A stretch of 64,000 bases of DNA, taken from NCBI GenBank assembly GCA_965261165.1, contig OZ253445.1, positions 973,987 to 1,037,986 of the forward strand, read 5' to 3'. Below, one piece after another: positions 5,347 through 52,549 of the stretch. Positions within the stretch are counted from its first letter, which is position 1; every line of letters starts with the position of its first letter. The notes under the pieces are model-generated. The model was not told where the DNA came from and did no database searches. It saw nothing but the letters and a program-made list of their open reading frames with translations. The stretch comes from Gammaproteobacteria bacterium. GTDB lineage: Bacteria; Pseudomonadota; Gammaproteobacteria; Eutrophobiales; Eutrophobiaceae. Both the position numbers and the translations under genes were made by a program.

Positions 5347-5800
5347 TCACATACAAATCCGTGATACTACCGGCCTGTATCTCTGCTGAGAAATTAAGTG
5401 TTTCAGAAAAGGTGGGGATGAGGATGAATCGTTAGACTTATATCTTCCCAATCTGCGCCCATTTCTAATGCTAATACGGCTTCGGCGATTAGTCCCCCCC
5501 CCCCCCCGCATTTGGACCAACAATACCTGCGTCAAGTATTCGCTGATTGTCTGGATTCCATAATATTATTGTCAACCCTTCATCACGACCAATACTCAAG
5601 GCACGGCCACTGGCGGCCCAGGGGGAAACAGATTTTTCATATTTAATATGAGCTTTTCTTAGCATCGGTTTCTGCCAATTCCATCCATGCGAGCTCAGGA
5701 TCAGGGTACGCAGCTGAGGGAATAGTTAAGGCATCAAAAGATAAACCTACCCCAGTTTGACTCACCCTTTCTAAAAGGGACGGTTGTCCTAGAGGAGAGT
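5347..5800 (-). pseudogene. lpd: Dihydrolipoamide-dehydrogenase-like (pyridine nucleotide-disulfide oxidoreductase) C-terminal pseudogene with at least three homopolymer frameshifts
   Basis: Across three frames it reads ...FDALTIPSAAYPDPELAWMELAETDAKK / KAHIKYEKSVSPWAASGRALSIG..ILDAGIVGPNAG / LIAEAVLALEMGADWEDISLTIHPHP / TFSETLNFSAEIQAGSITDL. This is collinear with the Lpd C-terminus (FPWAASGRA...IVGxNGGEL..LAIEMG.DAEDIALTIHAHPTL...GSITDL). Frameshifts sit at the A4, C15 and G4 runs; the N-terminus is replaced by an IS3 fragment. Confidence 0.6.
5488..5502 (+). repeat. Poly-C tract, 15 nt
   Basis: agtccccccccccccccccgcatt; lies inside the lpd-like pseudogene at a frameshift point. Confidence 0.8.
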
Positions 5801-5821: not shown

Positions 5822-5975
5822 AAAGAGATTTAAGTGCGGAATTTAAACAAGAAGCGGTGAGATTACTGGAGCAAGGCGATAAAGAAGTCTCGCAGTTAGC
5901 CAGAGAACCGGGTGTTGCTGATGATGTTTTGTGCGCTGCCATTGAAGGTGGTGTCTATGGCCTTGACACGTCGTA
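5822..5975 (+). mobile_element. IS3-family transposase OrfA N-terminal fragment (remnant)
   Basis: Translation RDLSAEFKQEAVRLLEQGDKEVSQLAREPGVADDVL matches the IS3 OrfA HTH start (FSAEFKxEAV...); no start codon, stops after 51 aa. Confidence 0.55.
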
Positions 5976-6123
5976 AGCCATCTCGGCTGTAGTCTACTAC
6001 TCTGCCACTTGGTAAGGTCATCTGGGTAATATGGTCGCCATCGTCATAGAGATAACCCATCTTGTAGCGGGTGCCTTGGCTTTCGGTAAAGCTACCGTTG
6101 CTTATGTTGCTATTTAAAACCAA
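5976..6123 (-). pseudogene. Rhs YD-repeat stub (duplicated leader of the Rhs module, truncated by the IS3 fragment)
   Basis: LVLNSNISNGSFTESQGTRYKMGYLYDDGDHITQMTLPSGRVVDYSRDG; 5' region 6060-6200 is about 95% identical to 9262-9402. Confidence 0.6.
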
Positions 6124-6347
6124 AGAATACTTTCCTAGTTATGTTTCCTGGCCATGCTCTAAACTCCTTTTCAATTAAATAATTCTGTCACCTTTTTCAC
6201 AGTAATCAGATTAAGGGGCTTGTCACAAACTAATAATTTATTTCAACATCATTAAAAAAAGACGCGGCCCGTTTAATTCAGGGCTAGGGTAATTCTGTTC
6301 GTTATTTATACCGGTTTAAATATCTAATTTGGTACATTTGCCTTTAT

Positions 6348-6686
6348 CTATCCGCCAGTAAATATGGTTAAGGAGACGCCTCCACAAACAACCCAATCAA
6401 TAAAAATAAAAAAAAGAATATATTTACGATAAATTAAAAATTTATCATTAACCTTAAAACATAAGGCATATAAGACAACACATAATAATACTATTGGAAT
6501 CAATGAAAACAGTGATTCACGCACAAGAATAAATGGAGATAATCCAAATAAAATTAATGCAGATATAGTAGTAAAGAATGTTGAAAAAGCTAATTCTTTA
6601 AATAAAAAAAACAATAAGAAGATTAGATATACACCAATTCCGGCATATAAAATATCTTTAAGAAAGCTTTTAATTCTTACATCCAT
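6348..6686 (-). CDS. Putative Rhs immunity protein, small polytopic membrane protein
   Basis: 112 aa, 3-4 TM helices, immediately downstream of the Rhs C-terminal toxin ORF on the same strand. Confidence 0.45.
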   Translation of the reverse strand: MDVRIKSFLKDILYAGIGVYLIFLLFFLFKELAFSTFFTTISALILFGLSPFILVRESLFSLIPIVLLCVVLYALCFKVNDKFLIYRKYILFFIFIDWVVCGGVSLTIFTGG

Positions 6687-6704
6687 AACAGAGTAATCAA
6701 GGAG

Positions 6705-7367
6705 CTACTTCTGATCATTAAAATAGTTATATGATTCAATAGCTGCTGGAATACCTTCAAATGCTGGACCACCTGTATCCCAGAATGTATGACCAAGAAC
6801 GTCTAACATATCATCCAAATCATATTCACTAACTGGTCCATCTGGCATGGGATATTCATCAGGGGTGCCTTTACAACCTGCATATTTATGATTTTCATCT
6901 ACAAGCCCTCCATCATCATCATAAAAGCATTCTGCAATTGGACCTTCATCACATTTATCATCCCTTACCTCAAGGAATCCCCTAAAACCACAATGGAATA
7001 CGCGAGGATCACCAACATAAGGTTTCCAATCAGAATTATGTATTGGCGGTAAAGATGGACACGATGCAGTTAATCCATTTATATCAACTCCAATAATTGG
7101 ATTTTGTTCTACATACCCATAGGTATTCATCCCACCTCTCAACCCTATCGGATCACTGGTAATATACCTGCCTAACTCAGGATCATAATATCTAAAGTGG
7201 TTGTAATGCAGATTAGTCTCCGCATCATAGTATTGTCCAGGAAAGCGAAGGTTGACACTGACACTGCCTGATGCTGGGGTATTCCCAAACGCCTCACCTT
7301 CCCAGCGCCAGATGACCTTACGTGCCGCATCGACAGGCAAGCCGCTCAAAGTAAAGAAACCATTCAC
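6705..7367 (-). CDS. Orphan Rhs C-terminal module: core tail (RVxWRxE..DPxGL motif) + about 130-aa toxin domain of unknown type
   Basis: KVIWRWEGEAFGN...RYYDPELGRYITSDPIGLRGGMNTYGYVEQNP marks the end of the Rhs core; the following domain (TASCPS...FHCGFRGFLEVRDDKCDEGPIAEC...GHTFWD...) has no motif I recognise; GTG start, no full-length rhs upstream. Confidence 0.65.
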   Translation of the reverse strand: MNGFFTLSGLPVDAARKVIWRWEGEAFGNTPASGSVSVNLRFPGQYYDAETNLHYNHFRYYDPELGRYITSDPIGLRGGMNTYGYVEQNPIIGVDINGLTASCPSLPPIHNSDWKPYVGDPRVFHCGFRGFLEVRDDKCDEGPIAECFYDDDGGLVDENHKYAGCKGTPDEYPMPDGPVSEYDLDDMLDVLGHTFWDTGGPAFEGIPAAIESYNYFNDQK

Positions 7368-7654
7368 GTCTGTGGTGGTGGTGACCCCACTATTTAAAAA
7401 GCTAATGCAATTAGGGTATTGCCTATACTTACATGAAACGATAAGACAGATTCATACTCGGCTAAGAATACTATTATCAATAGACTTGACCAGTTTATTC
7501 TACTCTTGGTGTCTTCGCGGAACTGACAGTACTCAATTACTCAGGCACTGCTCCGCTGTACTACCGGGGTGAATGCGCAATTCCCCGGACGGGACCTTAA
7601 TCCGCTAGATAGCTTGCTAGTAACGGCGTACTACCTGACCCCGTTGTTTTGACC

Positions 7655-8320
7655 TCAATGTGATAGTAAGAGATAAATTCTAAACCAATTTAATTGACAT
7701 TGATCATTTAATTGACATTGATCTAAACTAAATTCAAACCCAGACCTCACATCATAAACTCTATGATCATCTAGCATTTTTTTGTCATCATATCTGTAAG
7801 CGTAAAAAGAAGAGTTCTCAAACGAGGGTTTACCAAAAAAATATTTAATGTTAGAAACTTCTAAATCTAGCGATAATTCATTGACTTTCATCGTCTTGCG
7901 ATCAATTAAATTAGACTTTGCACATCTCTTTGGATCAGTAAAGTCAGCTTTCCCAATCCATATAGCGGTGATGGTACTCCACCCACCTAAAGGGCCAGAC
8001 TGAAATATTACACTGGTATCATCTTCTTCTGATCTATAGCAAATCAGTTTTGGAGAATAGTTTTTCCTATTTGGTCTATAAAACATCGACTCACCAAAAA
8101 TAGCAATCACTTCATCAAATGTTGATGTGCCTATTATTATATTTGCTATTCTTAAATAGCTCTTATCAATAGTTTTATTATCGTATCTTGAATCCCATCC
8201 TAGTTCACCTAGTTCAGGTAAAGCAAATGGAACATCTGCAACACTTGCGCATGAAATTAAAAAACACATAATGAAACTTAATGTTTTCCTTATATTCTTA
8301 CGTATGAAATTAATTTCCAT
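7655..8320 (-). CDS. Putative Rhs immunity lipoprotein (periplasmic)
   Basis: 221 aa; signal peptide with lipobox LISC; directly downstream of the toxin ORF 8323..9324; 18-bp tandem duplication at the 3' end gives LDQCQLNDQCQLN. Confidence 0.5.
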   Translation of the reverse strand: MEINFIRKNIRKTLSFIMCFLISCASVADVPFALPELGELGWDSRYDNKTIDKSYLRIANIIIGTSTFDEVIAIFGESMFYRPNRKNYSPKLICYRSEEDDTSVIFQSGPLGGWSTITAIWIGKADFTDPKRCAKSNLIDRKTMKVNELSLDLEVSNIKYFFGKPSFENSSFYAYRYDDKKMLDDHRVYDVRSGFEFSLDQCQLNDQCQLNWFRIYLLLSH

Positions 8321-8322
8321 AG

Positions 8323-9324
8323 CTACTGAACCGTCAAGGTACCACCGCCAGCAGCGTCAATTGCATTCCTTGTATTAAGCGAACATATTATGCATCCTTC
8401 AGAAGCCGATTGATTATTCTTTCCATTATCTCCATGCATTAAAAATGAATTTGGATCACGTGTTGATGGGAATTGATTATTACTTGGTGTAGGCATCAAC
8501 GGTAATGACTGCAAACCCGTTTTAGGATTATCAACACCAGTTCCAATATCATAATCTCCACGCGGGATAGGCCCTACATTAGGAACATTTTGTTGTAAAG
8601 GATCGTTTGTTGCTCCTGGTGCACCAGAGTAACACTGCTCATTTACATCCTGATTGCCTGTACTATCGTTGGTACAGATTAACTGACCACTAGCTTGATC
8701 GTAAGAACAGCTAACGGTTAATCCATTTATATCAACTCCAATAATTGGATTTTGATTCACATACCCATAAGTATTCATCCCGCCAATAATACCAATCGGA
8801 TCACTGGTAATATACCTGCCTAACTCAGGATCATAATATCTAAAGTGGTTGTAATGCAGATTAGTCTCCGCATCATAGTATTGTCCAGGAAAGCGAAGGT
8901 TGACACTGACACTGCCTGATGCTGGGGTATTCCCAAACGCCTCACCTTCCCAGCGCCAGATGACTTTACGTGTTGCATCGGTGGCGAGTCGGTTGGTCAG
9001 CAAATGGTCGGTGTGGAGGTAGATGATGCCTTCTGAGGGCATCCCTGCCTGTACAGGCATGCTGGCATCGATCTGTGCCACTGGATGCAGGCCTTGTTGC
9101 CAGATGTAATCTTTGATCAAGGCACCGGTCTCGGTGGTCTCGGTGATGAGATAACCCCGTTGGTCATAGTGATAGATGGTAATACTGTCTATGCTGATGC
9201 CATCACCTTGATAGACAGTCTTTCTGGTTCTCTGTCCGCTATCGTTATAGAGATAACTCATCTTGCAGCGGGTGCCTTGGCTTTCGGTAAAGCTACCGTT
9301 GCTTATGTTGCTATTTAAAACCAA
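8323..9324 (-). CDS. Orphan Rhs C-terminal module: YD-repeat core tail + toxin domain with YkuD/L,D-transpeptidase-like motif
   Basis: YD repeats, then DPIGIIGGMNTYGYVNQNP, then C-terminal domain containing FLMHGDNGKNNQSASEGCIIC, which resembles the L,D-transpeptidase catalytic HG...S.GC(I/V) signature; TTG start; no N-terminal Rhs portion. Confidence 0.65.
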   Translation of the reverse strand: MVLNSNISNGSFTESQGTRCKMSYLYNDSGQRTRKTVYQGDGISIDSITIYHYDQRGYLITETTETGALIKDYIWQQGLHPVAQIDASMPVQAGMPSEGIIYLHTDHLLTNRLATDATRKVIWRWEGEAFGNTPASGSVSVNLRFPGQYYDAETNLHYNHFRYYDPELGRYITSDPIGIIGGMNTYGYVNQNPIIGVDINGLTVSCSYDQASGQLICTNDSTGNQDVNEQCYSGAPGATNDPLQQNVPNVGPIPRGDYDIGTGVDNPKTGLQSLPLMPTPSNNQFPSTRDPNSFLMHGDNGKNNQSASEGCIICSLNTRNAIDAAGGGTLTVQ

Positions 9325-10164
9325 AGAATACTTTCCTAGTTATGTTTCCTGGTCATGTTCTAAACTCCTTTTCAATTAAATAATTCTGTCACCTTTTTCG
9401 GTGACAATCAATTAGTCGTGGTCTGTCTCTGGTTGTTTGATGAATGGGATGGATGATTGACGGGGTATTACCTGCCTCCGTGACTGAACATCGTATTGAA
9501 AATATTTATGTCTTGATGCTAATGCATGGTAACCACCAATCTGCTTGTCTTTGAATAGGTCATTTGCTGGTTCTGGTGAACATAAAGAGAAAATTGCTAA
9601 TGAAACAGAAAAGTAATTGTAATAAGGCGCAGGAATTCATCAACTACAGATGAATTTGTTTAGAAATTGAGCCATTTATCTCAAGAATTGTCTATCGGTC
9701 AGTCGGACGGGACACCTTAAATTTCATTCAACAATACTAATTTAACAATATTAAGATAAATTCCAATATTAAGATAAATTCCAATATAGTGACTACTGAA
9801 AAAATACACAGCGTGAACCATCCGCTAGCACGTTCTTATTTTTTATCATAATTCTCAATGATATAACTCGCCAAGAAATTCCCAGTGAGTACAGACAAAA
9901 CAAGAAAGGGAAGCGGGTATTTTGATGGATTACGCCCTAGATCGTCAATGTAATTAGTATAATAAAAGCAATACATTCCAAGGCTTACATTTACAGCACA
10001 AATCACCCTGTGATTAATCCAGCTCTCATCAAAAAAACTTAAGTAATTTGTTCGTCACTATTTAACCAATGCAATAAACGATCTTACAGGCAATTATCCG
10101 GTTCCGGCTGGCAATTCGGTGCACTTGGATTTATCTTACAATCTAATGAAGCGGCATTCGCATT

Positions 10165-10320
10165 AGAAATGCCAACTTGCAATCGTGCCGCCACTGATTA
10201 ATAAATCCAAGCCTAAGGCATCAATAACACGAACTGGGTCGTTCTCGCCGAGATAATCCTCTAGCCGCTCTGAGAATAACAGTTGTTGCTGGCGATTTAA
10301 TCCGCGTATGTAATCACTCA
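10165..10320 (-). mobile_element. IS1182/IS5-like transposase N-terminal fragment (remnant)
   Basis: Minus-strand translation MSDYIRGLNRQQQLLFSERLEDYLGENDPVRVIDALGLD matches the conserved N-terminus (LLPxxLDDYIxEDNPVRxIDAFVD) of this transposase family; about 50 aa only. Confidence 0.5.
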
Positions 10321-10478
10321 TAAAGCCTCTGTTTAATGATTAGAATCAGTTAGTTATGTTTGTTATTGTATCATAATTGGGCTAGGGTTTGGAGGTTTAT
10401 GCGTCCAAGTTTTCAGGTATTTTGCAGGGGCGGTGTATTAGCTTGAAATGCCAGCAACGTCGGTAAATTAGGGCAGTA

Positions 10479-10841
10479 ATGAGAATGCGCATAGGGGTAG
10501 TGGGTTTGTTGCACAGTCTCTTGGCTGGAGTCACGCTCGAAGACTTACCTTATGAAAAATTCATCAAACTTTATGACAAACCAAGCACGCTATTTTATTT
10601 AGATCCGCCCTACTATCATTCGGAATCATGCTACGGTGCTAGCTTATTCAGCAGAGAAGACTTCATGCACATCAGAGATATGCTTAGCGAGATAAAAGGG
10701 CGTTTCATCTTGTCGCTCAACGATGTTCCGGAAATACGCAAACTATATAAAGACTTCAATATTGAGATAGTCGAGACTAGATACACAATCAATGTAAAGG
10801 GGAAATCCCCAAAAAGAAACGAACTTCTCATCTCGAACTAA
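10479..10841 (+). pseudogene. Dam-type N6-adenine DNA methyltransferase, C-terminal half only
   Basis: FYLDPPYY (DPPY motif IV) and downstream region collinear with the E. coli Dam C-terminus; SAM-binding N-terminal half absent or frameshifted upstream. Confidence 0.55.
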
Positions 10842-12118: not shown

Positions 12119-12712
12119 ATGGTGAATAGAAGCGCAACAATTAAGCGAAAAACCAATGAGACTCAAATTGAAGTTAGCATTGATCTCGATGGAACAGGTG
12201 AGGCAAATCTTGAGTTAGGCGTGCCTTTTCTTGAGCACATGCTGGATCAGGTCGCTAGACATGGCATGTTTGATTTAAGCATCAAGGCAAAAGGCGATTT
12301 AGAGATTGATGCACATCACACTGTAGAAGATGTAGGCATTACTTTAGGTCAGGCCTTTACAAAAGCATTGGCTGACAAAAAAGGTATCCGTAGATATGGC
12401 CATGCCTATGTGCCTTTGGATGAAGCCTTATCGCGTGTCGTTCTGGATTGTTCTGGTAGACCCGGCCTAGAATATTCTGCTGAATATCCGCGCGCTCGGG
12501 TCGGGGACTTTGATCTCGACCTGCTTTTCGAATTTTTTCAGGGCTTTGTCAATCAAGGCATGGTGACTTTACATATTGATAAGCTCAAGGGACGCAATGC
12601 ACACCACATTGCCGAAACCATATTCAAGGCCTTTGGCCGTGCATTACGCATGGCCGTAGAACCTGATCCAAGAATGCAAGGTATATTACCTTCTACCAAA
12701 GGTACTTTATAA
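12119..12712 (+). CDS. hisB: Imidazoleglycerol-phosphate dehydratase
   Basis: 197 aa, IGPD motifs ([30 protein letters not shown]). Confidence 0.9.
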
Positions 12713-12743
12713 ACCGAATGCTATGACCCAAACGCCATAACAA

Positions 12744-13394
12744 ATGAGTAAAGTCGCTATCCTTGATTACGGAACCAGTAATCTGCGTTCTGTTGCCAAA
12801 GCCCTTGAGTTTGTTGCGGGGTCTCAACATGACATTCTCGTCACCGATCAGCATCAGGATATCCTCGCGGTTGATCGTATTGTTTTCCCGGGGCAGGGAG
12901 CGGTGGGTCAATGTATGAAAAGTCTTAAGGAATCTGGTCTTGATGAAGTAATTAAAGAGTGCATTAACAACAAACCCTTTCTGGGTATTTGTCTGGGCCT
13001 GCAATCATTGATGCAGGAAAGCGATGAGGATGGTAGAGTCGCTGGTCTAGGCATCATCCCCGGCAAAGTCATCCGTTTCCCAGATAATATCAAAGATGAA
13101 CATGGTGATATTTGTAAAATCCCGCACATGGGCTGGAACCGTGTCGTCCAACAAAAACCACATCCCTTATGGAAAAATATTGAAGATGGTGCTCGCTTCT
13201 ATTTTGTCCATAGTTACTATGCGCAAACAGAGAACGATGAAGATATTGCAGCTAAAACAAACTACGCCACTGAGTTTATTTCAGCAGCCGCCAGAGATAA
13301 TGTCTTCGCGACACAATTCCACCCCGAGAAAAGTCAGTGCGCAGGATTAACCTTGCTTAAAAATTTTTTGTCTTGGGACGGTAAAGATAACTAA
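12744..13394 (+). CDS. hisH: Imidazole glycerol phosphate synthase, glutamine amidotransferase subunit
   Basis: 216 aa class I GATase (GICLGLQ, FHPEKS). Confidence 0.9.
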   Translation: MSKVAILDYGTSNLRSVAKALEFVAGSQHDILVTDQHQDILAVDRIVFPGQGAVGQCMKSLKESGLDEVIKECINNKPFLGICLGLQSLMQESDEDGRVAGLGIIPGKVIRFPDNIKDEHGDICKIPHMGWNRVVQQKPHPLWKNIEDGARFYFVHSYYAQTENDEDIAAKTNYATEFISAAARDNVFATQFHPEKSQCAGLTLLKNFLSWDGKDN

Positions 13395-16295: not shown

Positions 16296-16580
16296 TTATT
16301 CCAGATCGTACTTCTTTAATTTTTTACGTAAAGTTGCTCTGTTGATGCCTAATATTTCCGCAGATTTTGTGATGTTTCCTTGCGTCTGTTTCAAAACAAC
16401 TTCAAGCATAGGCCTTTCAGTCTGGGATAACACAAGCTCATAGAGAGCGCTTGGATCGTGACCATCCATATCTTCAAAATAAAGTTCTAGAGCACTTTCT
16501 ACACAATGCTGTATAGATTGAGTACGTTTCCCTTTGTACTCTTTTTGTGATGTTTTTTTACCACTCGGCTTAACCATCAT
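16296..16580 (-). CDS. fis: DNA-binding protein Fis
   Basis: 94 aa, C-terminal [27 protein letters not shown]; 4-nt overlap with dusB. Confidence 0.9.
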
Positions 16581-17563
16581 GCTGCTAATGCTTCTCCATT
16601 ATTTATCGCACTAAAATAATTATTTGTCACGAGCAATTGTTTCTTGATACTCTCTAATTTATTAACCCTGCTACGCAATACCTCTCCATTTTCGAGATAT
16701 TTGCTGTAACAGCCAACATGTTTTCGTGCGACACGTACACCTATGTATTCACCATATAATTCGTACAGACTGTATAGATGCTGCAGCACAACTTGTTGAA
16801 CCTCCTTAGTGTCTGGCCTTGATAAGCGGATACCTATTTTCAGGAAATAGCTAATTTCATTGAATATCCATGGATTTCCCAAAGCAACTCGCCCTAGCAT
16901 GATGCCATCTACCCCCGTTATATGTAAGACCTCCACAGCTTTTTCTGGCGCTGTTATATCACCATTGGCAATCACTGGAATTGAAACATTATCTTTTACT
17001 TGTTTGATTGCTTGATATTCCGCTTCGCCCTTGAAACCACAAGCGCGGGTTCTGCCATGCACTGTCAACATTTAAATGCCTGAATTTTCTGCAATCTGTG
17101 CGATCTTGACTACATTCTTATTTTCTTTGTTCCAACCTGTCCGCATCTTCAGTGACACTGGCATATCCACCGCATCGACCACACTTTGCAGTATTTTTGT
17201 GACCAGTTTCTCATCCTGCATAAGTGCTGATCCAGAAAATACATTGCAGACCTTCTTGGCTGGGCAACCCATATTGATATCAATGATTTTTGCGCCGAGA
17301 TCAGCATTATGCCTGGCTGTATTTGCCATCGCTTGTGGATCTGCGCCAACAATCTGTACCGCACGAGGGGTCTCTCCCTCATAGTGATTCAGTCTTAATT
17401 GCGATTTTTTAGTGTCTCGGTATACTGGATTGGATGCCATCATTTCAGACGCAGCAAGACCCACGCCGTGCATTCTGCATAGCTGTCGAAATGGTTTATC
17501 TGTCACCCCCGCCATAGGCGCAAGCAACAGATTGTTATCGAGTGTGTATGAACCTAATCTCAT
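16577..17563 (-). pseudogene. dusB: tRNA-dihydrouridine synthase B interrupted by in-frame TAA (split into 163-aa and 164-aa ORFs)
   Basis: ...KIAQIAENSGI*MLTVHGRTRACGF... versus E. coli ...CGIQALTIHGRTRAC; the stop replaces the conserved Gln codon (CAA to TAA) and is followed immediately by ATG (TAAATG at 17069-17074). Confidence 0.8.
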
Positions 17564-23859: not shown

Positions 23860-24080
23860 ATTTAGGCGGGTATCAACCGCAGTGTCGCTACAAACCTCAG
23901 AACTTGAACCGTGAGTTCAAGTGGGAAGTAATCATGACATATCAGGCTCCCCACGAATGGATGTGCACACAACGTCAAAAATCAGATTCCCTTAGTAGTA
24001 TAGATAGGCTCAAGTCACCACCAGCCTGCTCACGAACACCGCAGAAAATACCCTAAACTGCTTGTCGCTACTCCAATTCG
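23860..24080 (-). ncRNA. ssrS: Candidate 6S RNA
   Basis: About 220-nt non-coding gap immediately downstream of zapA on the same strand, which is the conserved ssrS position. The minus-strand RNA ends with ...CUUGAACUCACGGUUCAAG... resembling the E. coli 6S 3' hairpin CCUUGAACCAAGGGUUCAAGG. Its central part GCGGUGUUCGUGAGCAGGCUGGUGG resembles E. coli GCGGUUGGUGAGCAUGCUCGG. Confidence 0.45.
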
Positions 24081-36000: not shown

Positions 36001-36319
36001 TCAGAAAAGCACGAAAATCTAAAATCCCGTAGGGATGATGCCTTTGTAGTCAGATAAATAATCACAGCCCTAAGCTCCGTAGGAGCGACATAATATCTCT
36101 GTGGTCTCGACTTCTGTTCCAGATTCAGTTCTACCTCCTGCATCCATGCAGTCGTCTGTGTCAAAATATTTTCGTCATTATCTCCTCTGTTACTACCCCT
36201 CTGAAGAAGTCAAAAAAGCATTTTAGCTTTGGGCTAACAGCTAATCTGCCTCCATTGACAAATATGGTCAGACATTATACCTTTGCCGACCAGTTGCATC
36301 AGGTCTCTGAGCATTTTTT

Positions 36320-36480
36320 GCTACAGAGTTAAACGGGAAGTCGGTGCGTATTTATGCAATTCCGACACTGCCCCCGCAACGGTAAATAAGTAAAGGCTGA
36401 TTATTCATGCCACTGTGTCTGAGGTGTACATGACATGGGAAGGCGATCAACCTACTGGAATTAATATCTTGCAGTACTTA
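36320..36480 (+). promoter_or_regulatory. Cobalamin (AdoCbl) riboswitch in the btuB leader
   Basis: gttaaacgggaagtcggtgcg...aattccgacactgcccccgcaacggtaa...catgccactgtgtctgag contains the conserved GGGAAG..GGUG, AAUUCC and B12-box GCCACUG elements. Confidence 0.6.
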
Positions 36481-36640
36481 TGAGTCCGGAGACCGACCTT
36501 TTGCCAGAACCATATCGCGGTGGGCGATGGCGGCGGTTTGGTAGGTCAATTTTTCAACCTTTTCCGCACAAATCCCTTCAGCGATATACCGTTTAATTTA
36601 TCGATCCCGGGCGGGTATCGGGTATTAGGGAGTCGTTTTC

Positions 36641-43220: not shown

Positions 43221-44015
43221 CTAACCCAGATGACGTTCCTTAATTTCATCCAGAGTTTTGCAGTCTATACATTGTGATGCTGTGGGGCGTGCCTCAAGTC
43301 GGCGAATACCAATTTCTATTCCACAAATCTCACAGAAGCCATATTCATCAGAATCAAGCATGGAAATTGATTCTTCAATCTTGCTTATGAGCTTACGTTC
43401 TCTATCGCGTGTACGTAATTCCAATGCAAATTCTTCTTCTTGTGATGCGCGATCATTTGGATCTGGAAAATTGGTAGCATCGTCCTGCATGTGATGCACT
43501 GTCCTATCGACTTCCTGCATGAGTTCTGTTTTCCAGGCGAGCAATATCTTTCTGAAATATTCCGTTTGTTCTTTTCCCATATAATCTTCATTCTTCCTTC
43601 TCTGTTTATATGGAGTAATTTTCCTTTTTAGTTTTCCTGTTGTTTTTTTCTTTTTGGCAGGGGTTTTTTTACTTACTTTCTTTTTAGCAACTGATTTCTT
43701 AGCTACCTTTTTGGCCGCCTTCTTTTTGGAGGTTTTCTTTTTGGCAGGGGTTTTTTTACTTACTTTCTTTTTAGCAACTGATTTCTTAGCTACCTTTTTG
43801 GCCACCTTCTTTTTGGAGGTTTTCTTTTTGGCAGGGGTTTTTTTACTTACTTTCTTTTTAGCAACTGATTTCTTAGCTACCTTTTTGGCCACCTTCTTTT
43901 TGGAGGTTTTCTTTTTGGCAGGGGTTTTTTTACTTACTTTCTTTTTAGCAACTGATTTCTTAGCTACCTTTTTGGCCACCTTCTTTTTGGCAGTTGCTTT
44001 TTTCTTGGCAGGCAT
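43221..44015 (-). CDS. dksA: DksA (RNA polymerase-binding transcription factor) with a 125-aa N-terminal Lys/Ala-rich histone-H1-like repeat extension
   Basis: C-terminal 140 aa collinear with E. coli DksA (DRTVHHMQDDATNFPDPNDRASQEEEF...CEICGIEIGIRRLEARPTASQCIDCK); N-terminus is 4 copies of VAKKVAKKSVAKKKVSKKTPAKKKTSKKK. Confidence 0.85.
   Translation of the reverse strand: MPAKKKATAKKKVAKKVAKKSVAKKKVSKKTPAKKKTSKKKVAKKVAKKSVAKKKVSKKTPAKKKTSKKKVAKKVAKKSVAKKKVSKKTPAKKKTSKKKAAKKVAKKSVAKKKVSKKTPAKKKKTTGKLKRKITPYKQRRKNEDYMGKEQTEYFRKILLAWKTELMQEVDRTVHHMQDDATNFPDPNDRASQEEEFALELRTRDRERKLISKIEESISMLDSDEYGFCEICGIEIGIRRLEARPTASQCIDCKTLDEIKERHLG
43651..44010 (-). repeat. Tandem repeat, 87-bp unit x about 4.1 (three near-perfect copies) within dksA
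   Basis: ctttttggcaggggtttttttacttactttctttttagcaactgatttcttagctacctttttggcc(g/a)ccttctttttggaggttttc repeated at 43651, 43738, 43825, 43912. Confidence 0.85.
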
Positions 44016-51820: not shown

Positions 51821-52549
51821 CTACTGATCTAATTCAGATCTGCCGCCGATGATAATGGCACTAATCAGGATAAGGCTGGCAATTATGAAATAGACTGTTG
51901 CAAGCTGCATACTGAGAATAAAGTGTAATGCGACAATGACAGAGATAAGCGCCAGTATCCGAGCGCCATGTAGTTGATTCGGTCGTAACAGCCAGTGAAT
52001 GCATAGAATCAGTATTGCAAAACTGATTACCAATAGCCCTGATTGTTTGATAATAGTTTTTCCTTGCCAAGGATGTATGAGTAAATCCATGGAGATATAG
52101 GTCGAAATCCCAAATTGATTGGTTTTCACTAAGCAAAATATAGTGATTATCTGTACTGCAATAAAGATTAGACACCTTGCTCCATGTTGATTAAGGATGC
52201 CGCGTTCTTTTAGGTAATTAAATACCAAGAAATTAAGCGGGATCAAAATACAAAGGAAATTAAACAGGAGTTCTTTTTGAAACCCTGCGAGGCCTTTGCC
52301 CCAAAAGAACTGGCTTAAGGCACCAAATGAAACAGCAAGGATAATAAAAAGATTGAATTCTCGCCCTTTATGGGACAACCAACATAGCGCAAGCCCAATG
52401 GCAAAAACTACGCAGGAAAGGATGTGTAGATTGGCACCCAACCATGTATATTTTGGGAATTCAGCCCACCCAAGAGTGATTGATACTGCTGGCAACAATA
52501 GTATCAGCAATAATAATAATGCTTTAAAATTACGTGAGTTATTGCTCAA
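51821..52549 (-). CDS. Polytopic membrane protein of unknown function (about 7 TM)
   Basis: 242 aa, highly hydrophobic, between ligA and nadB. Confidence 0.4.
   Translation of the reverse strand: MSNNSRNFKALLLLLILLLPAVSITLGWAEFPKYTWLGANLHILSCVVFAIGLALCWLSHKGREFNLFIILAVSFGALSQFFWGKGLAGFQKELLFNFLCILIPLNFLVFNYLKERGILNQHGARCLIFIAVQIITIFCLVKTNQFGISTYISMDLLIHPWQGKTIIKQSGLLVISFAILILCIHWLLRPNQLHGARILALISVIVALHFILSMQLATVYFIIASLILISAIIIGGRSELDQ

Follow-up and report, generated by a model that had tools for sequence, protein, structure and literature searches.

A displaced orphan Rhs cassette with a Tlde1-family toxin domain and a candidate lipoprotein immunity gene in a gammaproteobacterial genome

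The Rhs core tail and its toxin domain

The subject of this analysis is a pair of adjacent genes in a 64,000-nucleotide stretch of DNA (the window) from a gammaproteobacterium of the family Eutrophobiaceae (assembly GCA_965261165.1, contig OZ253445.1, positions 973,987 to 1,037,986), in which an earlier note made from the letters alone had described an orphan Rhs toxin gene followed by a lipoprotein gene; the motifs, coordinates and spacing that it quoted are all present in the sequence. The toxin open reading frame (ORF) lies at 8323..9324 (-), starts with TTG, encodes 333 residues and ends in a stop codon at 8323..8325, and the ATG of the downstream 221-residue ORF, 7655..8320 (-), is found 2 nucleotides past that stop codon. 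Residues 1-202 of the toxin ORF (8719..9324 (-)) form an Rhs core tail with YD repeats, within which the Rhs-associated core domain covers residues 129-202 and DPIGIIGGMNTYGYVNQNP begins at residue 175. The NCBIfam profile TIGR03696 (Rhs_assc_core) scores 86.7 bits against this ORF (cutoff 32.5), residues 22-213 match solved Rhs proteins with E values of 7e-19 to 1e-16 in a search of PDB sequences, and the core tail is 69% identical to residues 2325-2503 of a 2612-residue Rhs protein from an uncultured gammaproteobacterium (locus L008). The best core-tail match in a genome scan was 71% identical and came from metagenome-assembled genomes of uncultured gammaproteobacteria. The assignment of this ORF to Rhs is thus far beyond chance. 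The core ends with PIIGVDINGL (8719..8748 (-), residues 193-202), which keeps the Pro, Asp, Gly and Leu of PxxxxDPxGL but has DINGL in place of DPxGL, a variant that recurs in a neighboring Rhs fragment (module 2, described below); relatives have DPLGL.

A full Rhs shell of more than 1000 residues with an N-terminal delivery or export part is absent, as only about 200 core residues are present. No Rhs-like sequence was found upstream of the TTG codon, where stops occur in all three frames, and when the 2612-residue Rhs protein was used as a tblastn query against the whole window it returned three pieces only (9267..8719, 7340..7035 and 6132..5905), with no further rhs-like sequence in the 64 kb. 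Because of these upstream stops and the limited set of matches, we consider the gene to be a fragment rather than one with a mis-called start, which bears out its earlier description as an orphan Rhs module. Our search of the 333-residue protein for a signal peptide, PAAR or other delivery domain found none.

The toxin domain follows PIIGVDINGL and comprises residues 203-333 (131 residues, 8326..8718 (-)). It belongs to the Tlde1/DUF2778 family, whose profile PF10908 (Tlde1_dom, formerly DUF2778) matches residues 231-317 with 34.4 bits against a gathering score of 30.1 (E 3.4e-8) and is also present in all 11 of the closest database relatives of the domain. A tblastn search of annotated plasmids recovered proteins labelled as tlde1 or DUF2778 domain-containing that are 33-37% identical to the domain over 90-98% of its length. 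On Pantoea vagans plasmid pVag1, a gene of this type lies directly after tssD, which encodes Hcp, and ahead of a gene for a small signal-peptide protein, the order classically seen for type VI cargo effectors.

The catalytic motif H297-x13-C311 (HGDNGKNNQSASEGC) lies at 8392..8436 (-), with the His codon at 8434..8436 and the Cys codon at 8392..8394; FLMHGDNGKNNQSASEGCIIC begins at residue 294, and His297 and Cys311 are 14 residues apart. His297, Ser308, Gly310 and Cys311 are invariant across 12 aligned homologs, and H297 together with S308-E-G-C311-I follows the Tlde1 motif H-x(n)-(S/T)-x-G-C-h. A spacing of 14 is also seen in 118 of 142 related cluster representatives. Since the residue before Gly-Cys varies among these 142 sequences (E in 56, H in 22, N in 16, Q in 14 and D in 14), the occurrence of SEGC instead of the canonical SHGC is normal for this branch. 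An AlphaFold model of the domain, built from a 12-sequence alignment, reached a mean predicted local distance difference test (pLDDT) score of 80.8, and its 45 best Foldseek matches in the PDB are all L,D-transpeptidases or YkuD proteins, the best being the L,D-carboxypeptidases Pgp2 and Csd6. The domain is therefore predicted to adopt the L,D-transpeptidase (YkuD) fold, and the earlier proposal of a YkuD-like C-terminal domain with a His-Cys spacing of 14 is upheld by the family profile, the modeled structure and the conserved catalytic residues alike. The ratio of nonsynonymous to synonymous substitution rates (dN/dS) for the domain is about 0.07-0.09, which is consistent with purifying selection but, because dS is saturated (above 1 or undefined), speaks to long-term constraint and not to current function.

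A profile search with the toxin domain returned 3622 cluster representatives at E <= 0.001, most of which are standalone proteins of 120-135 residues, and among the top 150 were four Rhs proteins of 1287-1815 residues and several orphans of 420-440 residues. Homologs of the domain occur at the C-termini of Rhs proteins, as Hcp-linked effectors or in phages. Standalone homologs of 120-130 residues with 32-44% identity occur in jumbo Erwinia and Dickeya phages and in phage-like metagenome contigs (L004-L007), and 58 phage records contain one, such as Erwinia phage pEa_SNUABM_17 (MZ443777.1), mostly annotated as hypothetical.

The downstream lipoprotein and its pairing with the toxin

The product of 7655..8320 (-) begins with MEINFIRKNIRKTLSFIMCFLISC, which provides a basic n-region, a hydrophobic core and the lipobox LISC (residues 21-24, with the codon of Cys24 at 8249..8251). 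Judged on motif and alignment, this agrees with the lipoprotein signal pattern [LVI][ASTVI][GAS]C. The lipobox cysteine is aligned in 21 of 21 family members; C94, C133 and an FQSGPLGGW motif are likewise invariant, and the window protein keeps all 29 invariant positions of the family. Near its C-terminus lies an 18-nucleotide in-frame tandem duplication (7688..7723 (-)) that encodes DQCQLN twice and is absent from all 20 homologs compared. For the immunity protein dN/dS is 0.13-0.42, with dS again saturated so that the values reflect long-term constraint only.

Profile searches placed this protein in no described family. Against Pfam it matched nothing but DUF5996 at E 0.053, no match was found in NCBIfam or among PDB sequences, and none of its 18 homologs of about 200 residues contains a Pfam domain. 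The immunity families Tldi1 (DUF2195) and Imm16/Imm57 were excluded as candidates, as none gave a profile match. A similar pattern of the form Cys...F-x-S...TAI...C can be seen in the product of the gene that follows tlde1 in Pantoea, but the comparison of the two proteins is not significant (hhalign probability 0.6%). The predicted structure of the lipoprotein (pLDDT 79.8) resembles beta-lactamase inhibitor protein (BLIP)-like and BamE-like proteins, with structural match scores of 9.1 for the DUF4309 protein YjgB (4YGT), 7.3 for the lipoprotein YfeY (2QZB), 7.1 for a type VI secretion system (T6SS) immunity protein, TsiN (9J9W), 6.3 for a putative beta-lactamase inhibitor protein, 5.8 for the T6SS immunity protein BtiO (9UU1) and 5.6 for BamE. 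A fold of this type thus occurs in solved T6SS immunity proteins as well, and the BLIP-like proteins 3D4E and 3GMX, together with TsiN, BtiO, YfeY and YjgB, form the closest known group of periplasmic inhibitor and immunity proteins.

Gene order in related loci fits an immunity role. In four of five related loci (L001, L003, L044 and L046), a homolog of the lipoprotein gene lies directly after a homologous toxin domain; in the fifth, L045, it occurs at 10001..10609 (+) without an adjacent Tlde1 domain and is an orphan immunity gene. At 7844..8965 (+) the L045 locus also has another Rhs orphan, which carries a true PF03734 YkuD domain (34.6 bits). The toxins of the related loci are 73-76% identical to the window toxin, whereas their immunity proteins are only 30-55% identical to the window lipoprotein and fall into two groups, at about 50% and about 30%. 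Such an asymmetry between conserved toxins and divergent immunity proteins is as expected of toxin/immunity pairs and has been reported for Tlde1 (bioRxiv 10.1101/2020.02.18.954545). Given the invariant lipobox and this conserved pairing, a cognate periplasmic immunity lipoprotein, as first suggested from the letters, is the best reading of 7655..8320.

Two of the loci show where such modules normally reside. In L044 and L008 the orphan follows the canonical order, downstream of a full-length rhs gene: the homologous pair of L044 is the first of three orphans behind such a gene, the product of which begins with a Sec-type signal peptide followed by a DUF6531 domain, and the orphan that follows rhs in L008 begins at the homology boundary also seen in the window module, LKAEYIYNDGGQRTRKT. 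Among full-length Rhs proteins, the closest relatives have signal peptides as well as Ig, SBBP or DUF6531 domains; a search of these proteins for PAAR gave no match.

A three-module array and its surroundings

The toxin ORF with its lipoprotein gene (module 1) is the first of three Rhs fragments that lie at about 5900..9400 amid gene debris. Module 2 (6705..7367 (-); TIGR03696 89.5 bits) consists of a shorter Rhs core tail and an unrelated toxin domain of about 120 residues. Its core contains the 264-nucleotide repeat D1 (7069..7332 (-)), which is 95% identical to 8717..8980 of module 1, and within the window it is with this neighboring orphan only that module 1 shares core sequence. The toxin domain of module 2 (6705..7058 (-)) has no Pfam or NCBIfam match and just two homologs among 5.8 billion proteins, with 45-47% identity, one of which is encoded in phage-like contigs (L047, L048) close to P22-type genes for portal and capsid; by sequence, this tip appears to be a rare toxin domain common to an Rhs tip and phages. 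The gene that follows, 6348..6686 (-), encodes a hydrophobic multi-pass membrane protein of 112 residues without a family match, which from its position only is presumed to be the immunity protein of module 2. Module 3 (5896..6198 (-)) is truncated at its 3' end and comprises the second copy of a repeat, D2, and a 76-residue Rhs core piece (RHS_repeat 24.5 bits) that is 61% identical to residues 2090-2165 of the L008 Rhs protein.

Repeat D2 forms the 5' junction of module 1 (9226..9399 (-), 174 nucleotides), and its second copy, at 6025..6198, is 94% identical; a 32-nucleotide core occurs exactly twice in the window, where chance would give 0. It consists of a non-coding leader of about 66-75 nucleotides and the first 33 codons of module 1. 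The leader is not Rhs coding sequence, and neither a further copy in the window nor one in the metagenome collection was found; it contains a strong AAAGGAG followed by a mini-ORF of six codons (MTRKHN). As the match of the module 3 core in the L008 protein lies about 235 residues upstream of that of module 1, module 1 would be a chimera whose first approximately 26 codons come from that upstream position in the shell and meet position ~2328 at a YxYxD repeat, a junction that we take to reflect an internal deletion of about 200 shell residues between two YD repeats. Just upstream of module 1, a consensus scan found a terminator-like G+C-rich hairpin with a T-rich run (9386..9407 (-)), which is merely a hint because such sites are not above shuffled expectation in this region; the same holds for promoter-like sites. 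The spacer between the lipoprotein gene and module 2 contains a 127-nucleotide group II intron D1-D4 fragment (7481..7607 (-)) that matches Rfam RF02003 with 44.3 bits, below the gathering score of 49 (E 1e-7). No intron-encoded protein accompanies it, and a similar short motif (AAGGTGTCCCGTCCG) is present near 9725.

The array sits between hemF and a metal-related gene cluster. Close to it are a fragment that resembles the C-terminal end of dihydrolipoyl dehydrogenase or mercuric reductase (lpd/merA-like, 5489..5665 (-)), a transposase-like N-terminal fragment (10163..10321 (-)) and the C-terminal 120 residues of a truncated D12-class adenine methyltransferase (10479..10841 (+)), and no tRNA gene that would mark the integration site of an island was found near it. 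A Pfam scan covered the ORFs of at least 150 residues from 11094 to 63822 save hisB and hisH (12119..13394), which were named from their translations only, and most ORFs below 11000. Apart from 51821..52549, which had no match, the scanned ORFs have housekeeping or envelope functions. None of them is a full-length rhs gene or encodes VgrG, PAAR, Hcp or another T6SS component; the earlier statement that the module is unaccompanied by such genes therefore holds within the 64-kb window.

Other features of the window lie at a distance from the array. A dusB-like gene for a tRNA-dihydrouridine synthase (16577..17563 (-)) is broken by one in-frame TAA at 17072..17074 (..AENSGI*MLTVHGRT..), whether through a nonsense mutation or through an error in sequencing; this stop and the fragments near the array hint at relaxed selection or gene decay in the genome. 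The DksA encoded at 43221..44015 (-) has an N-terminal extension of about 130 residues that matches a histone H1-like HC2 profile with 50.7 bits. A cobalamin riboswitch (36284..36515 (+)) upstream of a TonB-dependent receptor gene and a 6S RNA gene (23870..24050 (-)) both score above their Rfam gathering scores and are ordinary.

A probably silent toxin and a candidate immunity gene

We read module 1 as a displaced orphan rhs toxin/immunity cassette in which an Rhs tail with a Tlde1-family toxin is paired with a lipoprotein immunity gene and the toxin is most likely silent, and assign this reading a probability of roughly three in four. In a full-length Rhs protein of this kind, the YD-repeat shell would enclose the toxin, which would be cleaved off after the core-end motif, and the protein would be exported so that the toxin is freed into the periplasm of a neighboring cell. 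There, by analogy to Salmonella Tlde1a, for which L,D-carboxypeptidase and D-amino-acid exchange activity has been shown (PMC9638812; bioRxiv 10.1101/2020.02.18.954545), His297 and Cys311 would attack the bond between meso-diaminopimelate and D-Ala, either trimming tetrapeptide to tripeptide stems or exchanging the terminal D-amino acid, and cells starved of cross-linking would swell and lyse. The downstream lipoprotein would sit anchored in the periplasm, where it would most likely bind the toxin and so block its active-site cleft. Because the shell and the N-terminal export or delivery part are missing, the window toxin itself is most likely silent or undeliverable, and at most it may supply sequence that could recombine into a full-length rhs gene elsewhere in the genome, a route to reactivation that is established for orphan rhs modules (PMC3967940, PMC3150448). 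Tlde1a is toxic only when targeted to the periplasm and harmless in the cytoplasm (bioRxiv 10.1101/2020.02.18.954545), so a cytoplasmic remnant would be harmless and its leaky translation cheap. The intact immunity gene may still protect the cell against the same toxin from neighbors.

Some observations weigh against this reading. Of the profile searches that the earlier note had proposed, the one for Tlde1-like families succeeded with PF10908 but the one for YkuD failed, as the PF03734 profile found nothing in the toxin ORF at E <= 1. Searches of PDB sequences, Tlde1a included, with phmmer and with the family profile gave no significant match, the profile reaching only a weak E of 0.77 to L,D-transpeptidase 4lpq in a gapless alignment over the catalytic motif with the same His-to-Cys spacing of 14. 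A direct sequence link to YkuD or Tlde1a was dropped on these grounds. The connection to Tlde1a thus rests on the PF10908 profile and the predicted fold, and with PF03734 silent the proper label for the domain is Tlde1/DUF2778, a YkuD-fold relative. Self-cleavage is uncertain because the core ends in DINGL and not in the canonical DPxGL. The immunity gene starts 2 nucleotides beyond the stop codon of the toxin and shows no separate promoter signal above chance, so that its expression is not assured and probably depends on transcription through the toxin fragment. The toxin frame, finally, is intact and preceded by AGGAAAG about 7 nucleotides before the TTG codon, so some translation is possible.

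The strongest competing explanation is that the whole array, immunity gene included, is non-functional debris heading for deletion. The setting fits this view, as fragments of lpd/merA-like, D12 methylase, transposase-like and group II intron sequence surround the modules, module 3 is truncated, the immunity gene bears its unique 18-nucleotide duplication, no promoter signal rises above chance, and the dusB stop suggests relaxed selection or sequencing errors. However, the 333- and 221-residue frames are both intact, the duplication is itself in frame, and the 29 invariant immunity positions are retained along with the catalytic residues of the toxin, and we regard general decay as possible but considerably less likely than the cassette reading given above. 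Slightly less probable again is a YkuD-fold enzyme of other bond specificity, such as an amidase acting on the Lpp-peptidoglycan link (DpaA/LdtF-like) or an L,D-endopeptidase, which would kill in a different mode; the top structural matches, Pgp2 and Csd6, are L,D-carboxypeptidases, which is the activity shown for Tlde1a, and Pfam places the domain in Tlde1_dom.

The intact frame and its upstream AGGAAAG could also mean that the 333-residue protein is made from TTG (or from Met22) and acts as a toxin alone, delivered without a shell or N-terminal domain. Retention of the 5' junction with its 66-75-nucleotide leader in two copies and the apparent purifying selection on the toxin domain would suit this proposal, but the protein has no signal peptide, PAAR or other delivery domain, its first 21 residues are a YD-repeat piece joined through the loss of about 200 core residues, orphans of equal length are found behind full-length rhs genes in relatives, and the terminator-like hairpin lies just upstream, all of which make it improbable. 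That the pair is instead an accessory lipoprotein and a housekeeping enzyme (an L,D-transpeptidase or carboxypeptidase), as a YkuD fold with a conserved His/Cys dyad might suggest, is very improbable, since the domain continues the frame of an Rhs core tail, has no signal peptide and so could not enter the periplasm unaided, and has Rhs C-termini, Hcp-linked effectors or phage proteins as homologs. Pgp2 of Campylobacter jejuni (6XJ7) and Csd6 of Helicobacter pylori (4XZZ), which are housekeeping cell-shape enzymes, differ in having a signal peptide and an NTF2-like domain and are only 13-14% identical to the window domain.

Taken as an orphan rhs cassette, module 1 can be set beside known systems. 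Tlde1 (type VI L,D-transpeptidase effector 1) was described in Salmonella Typhimurium, and its families Tlde1a, b and c are called Tae5, 6 and 7 in a preprint (bioRxiv 10.1101/2020.02.18.954545; PMC9638812). Compared with Tlde1a, the window domain is 16% identical in structural alignment, has a His-to-Cys spacing of 14 rather than 10 (H121, C131) and carries SEGC rather than SHGC; Tlde1a is a small Hcp cargo protein, whereas the window domain is fused to an Rhs tail with no T6SS gene in the window. Its candidate immunity protein is not a DUF2195 protein like Tldi1a and has a lipoprotein signal instead, in contrast to the plain Sec signals reported for Tai5 and Tai6 and the transmembrane helices reported for Tai7. 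DUF2778 at an Rhs C-terminus was found in 387 of 3510 genomes carrying Tae7/Tlde1c (11%), and T6SS genes were near in only 42.6% of Tae7-carrying genomes (bioRxiv 10.1101/2020.02.18.954545). The earlier view that such effectors are rare and poorly characterized was overstated, because fusions of this type were already reported in 387 genomes in 2020, the family has a name (PF10908), and full-length as well as orphan Rhs-Tlde1 proteins are readily found.

Classical orphan rhs-CT/rhsI modules come from Salmonella, E. coli, Dickeya and Serratia (PMC3967940, PMC3150448). Like these, module 1 joins a core-tail fragment to a toxin domain and an immunity gene without an N-terminal part, lies in a tandem array and shares near-identical core sequence with a neighboring module (D1, 95%). 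Unlike these, it has lost about 200 residues internally, between two YD repeats, and whereas a classical orphan comes directly after a full-length rhs gene, the window array has no such gene within 64 kb and is mixed with debris.

Rhs proteins with a Tlde1/DUF2778 tip are a documented class to which the window module adds one example, and the way in which such systems are understood is unchanged by it. Less familiar are the lack of PAAR matches among the full-length Rhs relatives, the array's displacement from any full-length rhs gene and, as the freshest element, the unannotated family of likely lipoprotein immunity proteins. Three points go slightly beyond the literature we read: this lipoprotein family, the Sec-exported look of the related full-length Rhs proteins and the common occurrence in phages of standalone proteins related to the toxin domain. 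We suggest tentatively that the lipoproteins of about 200 residues may be an undescribed BLIP/BamE-like immunity family for Rhs-borne Tlde1 toxins and that this Rhs lineage, whose closest full-length members begin with Sec signal peptides and continue with Ig, beta-propeller or DUF6531 domains, may deliver a periplasmic peptidoglycan toxin between Gram-negative cells without a T6SS. As these relatives look Sec-exported and not PAAR-linked, the delivery route of a periplasmic toxin comes into question. The two divergent groups of lipoproteins, set against conserved toxins, offer a convenient system in which to study immunity specificity.

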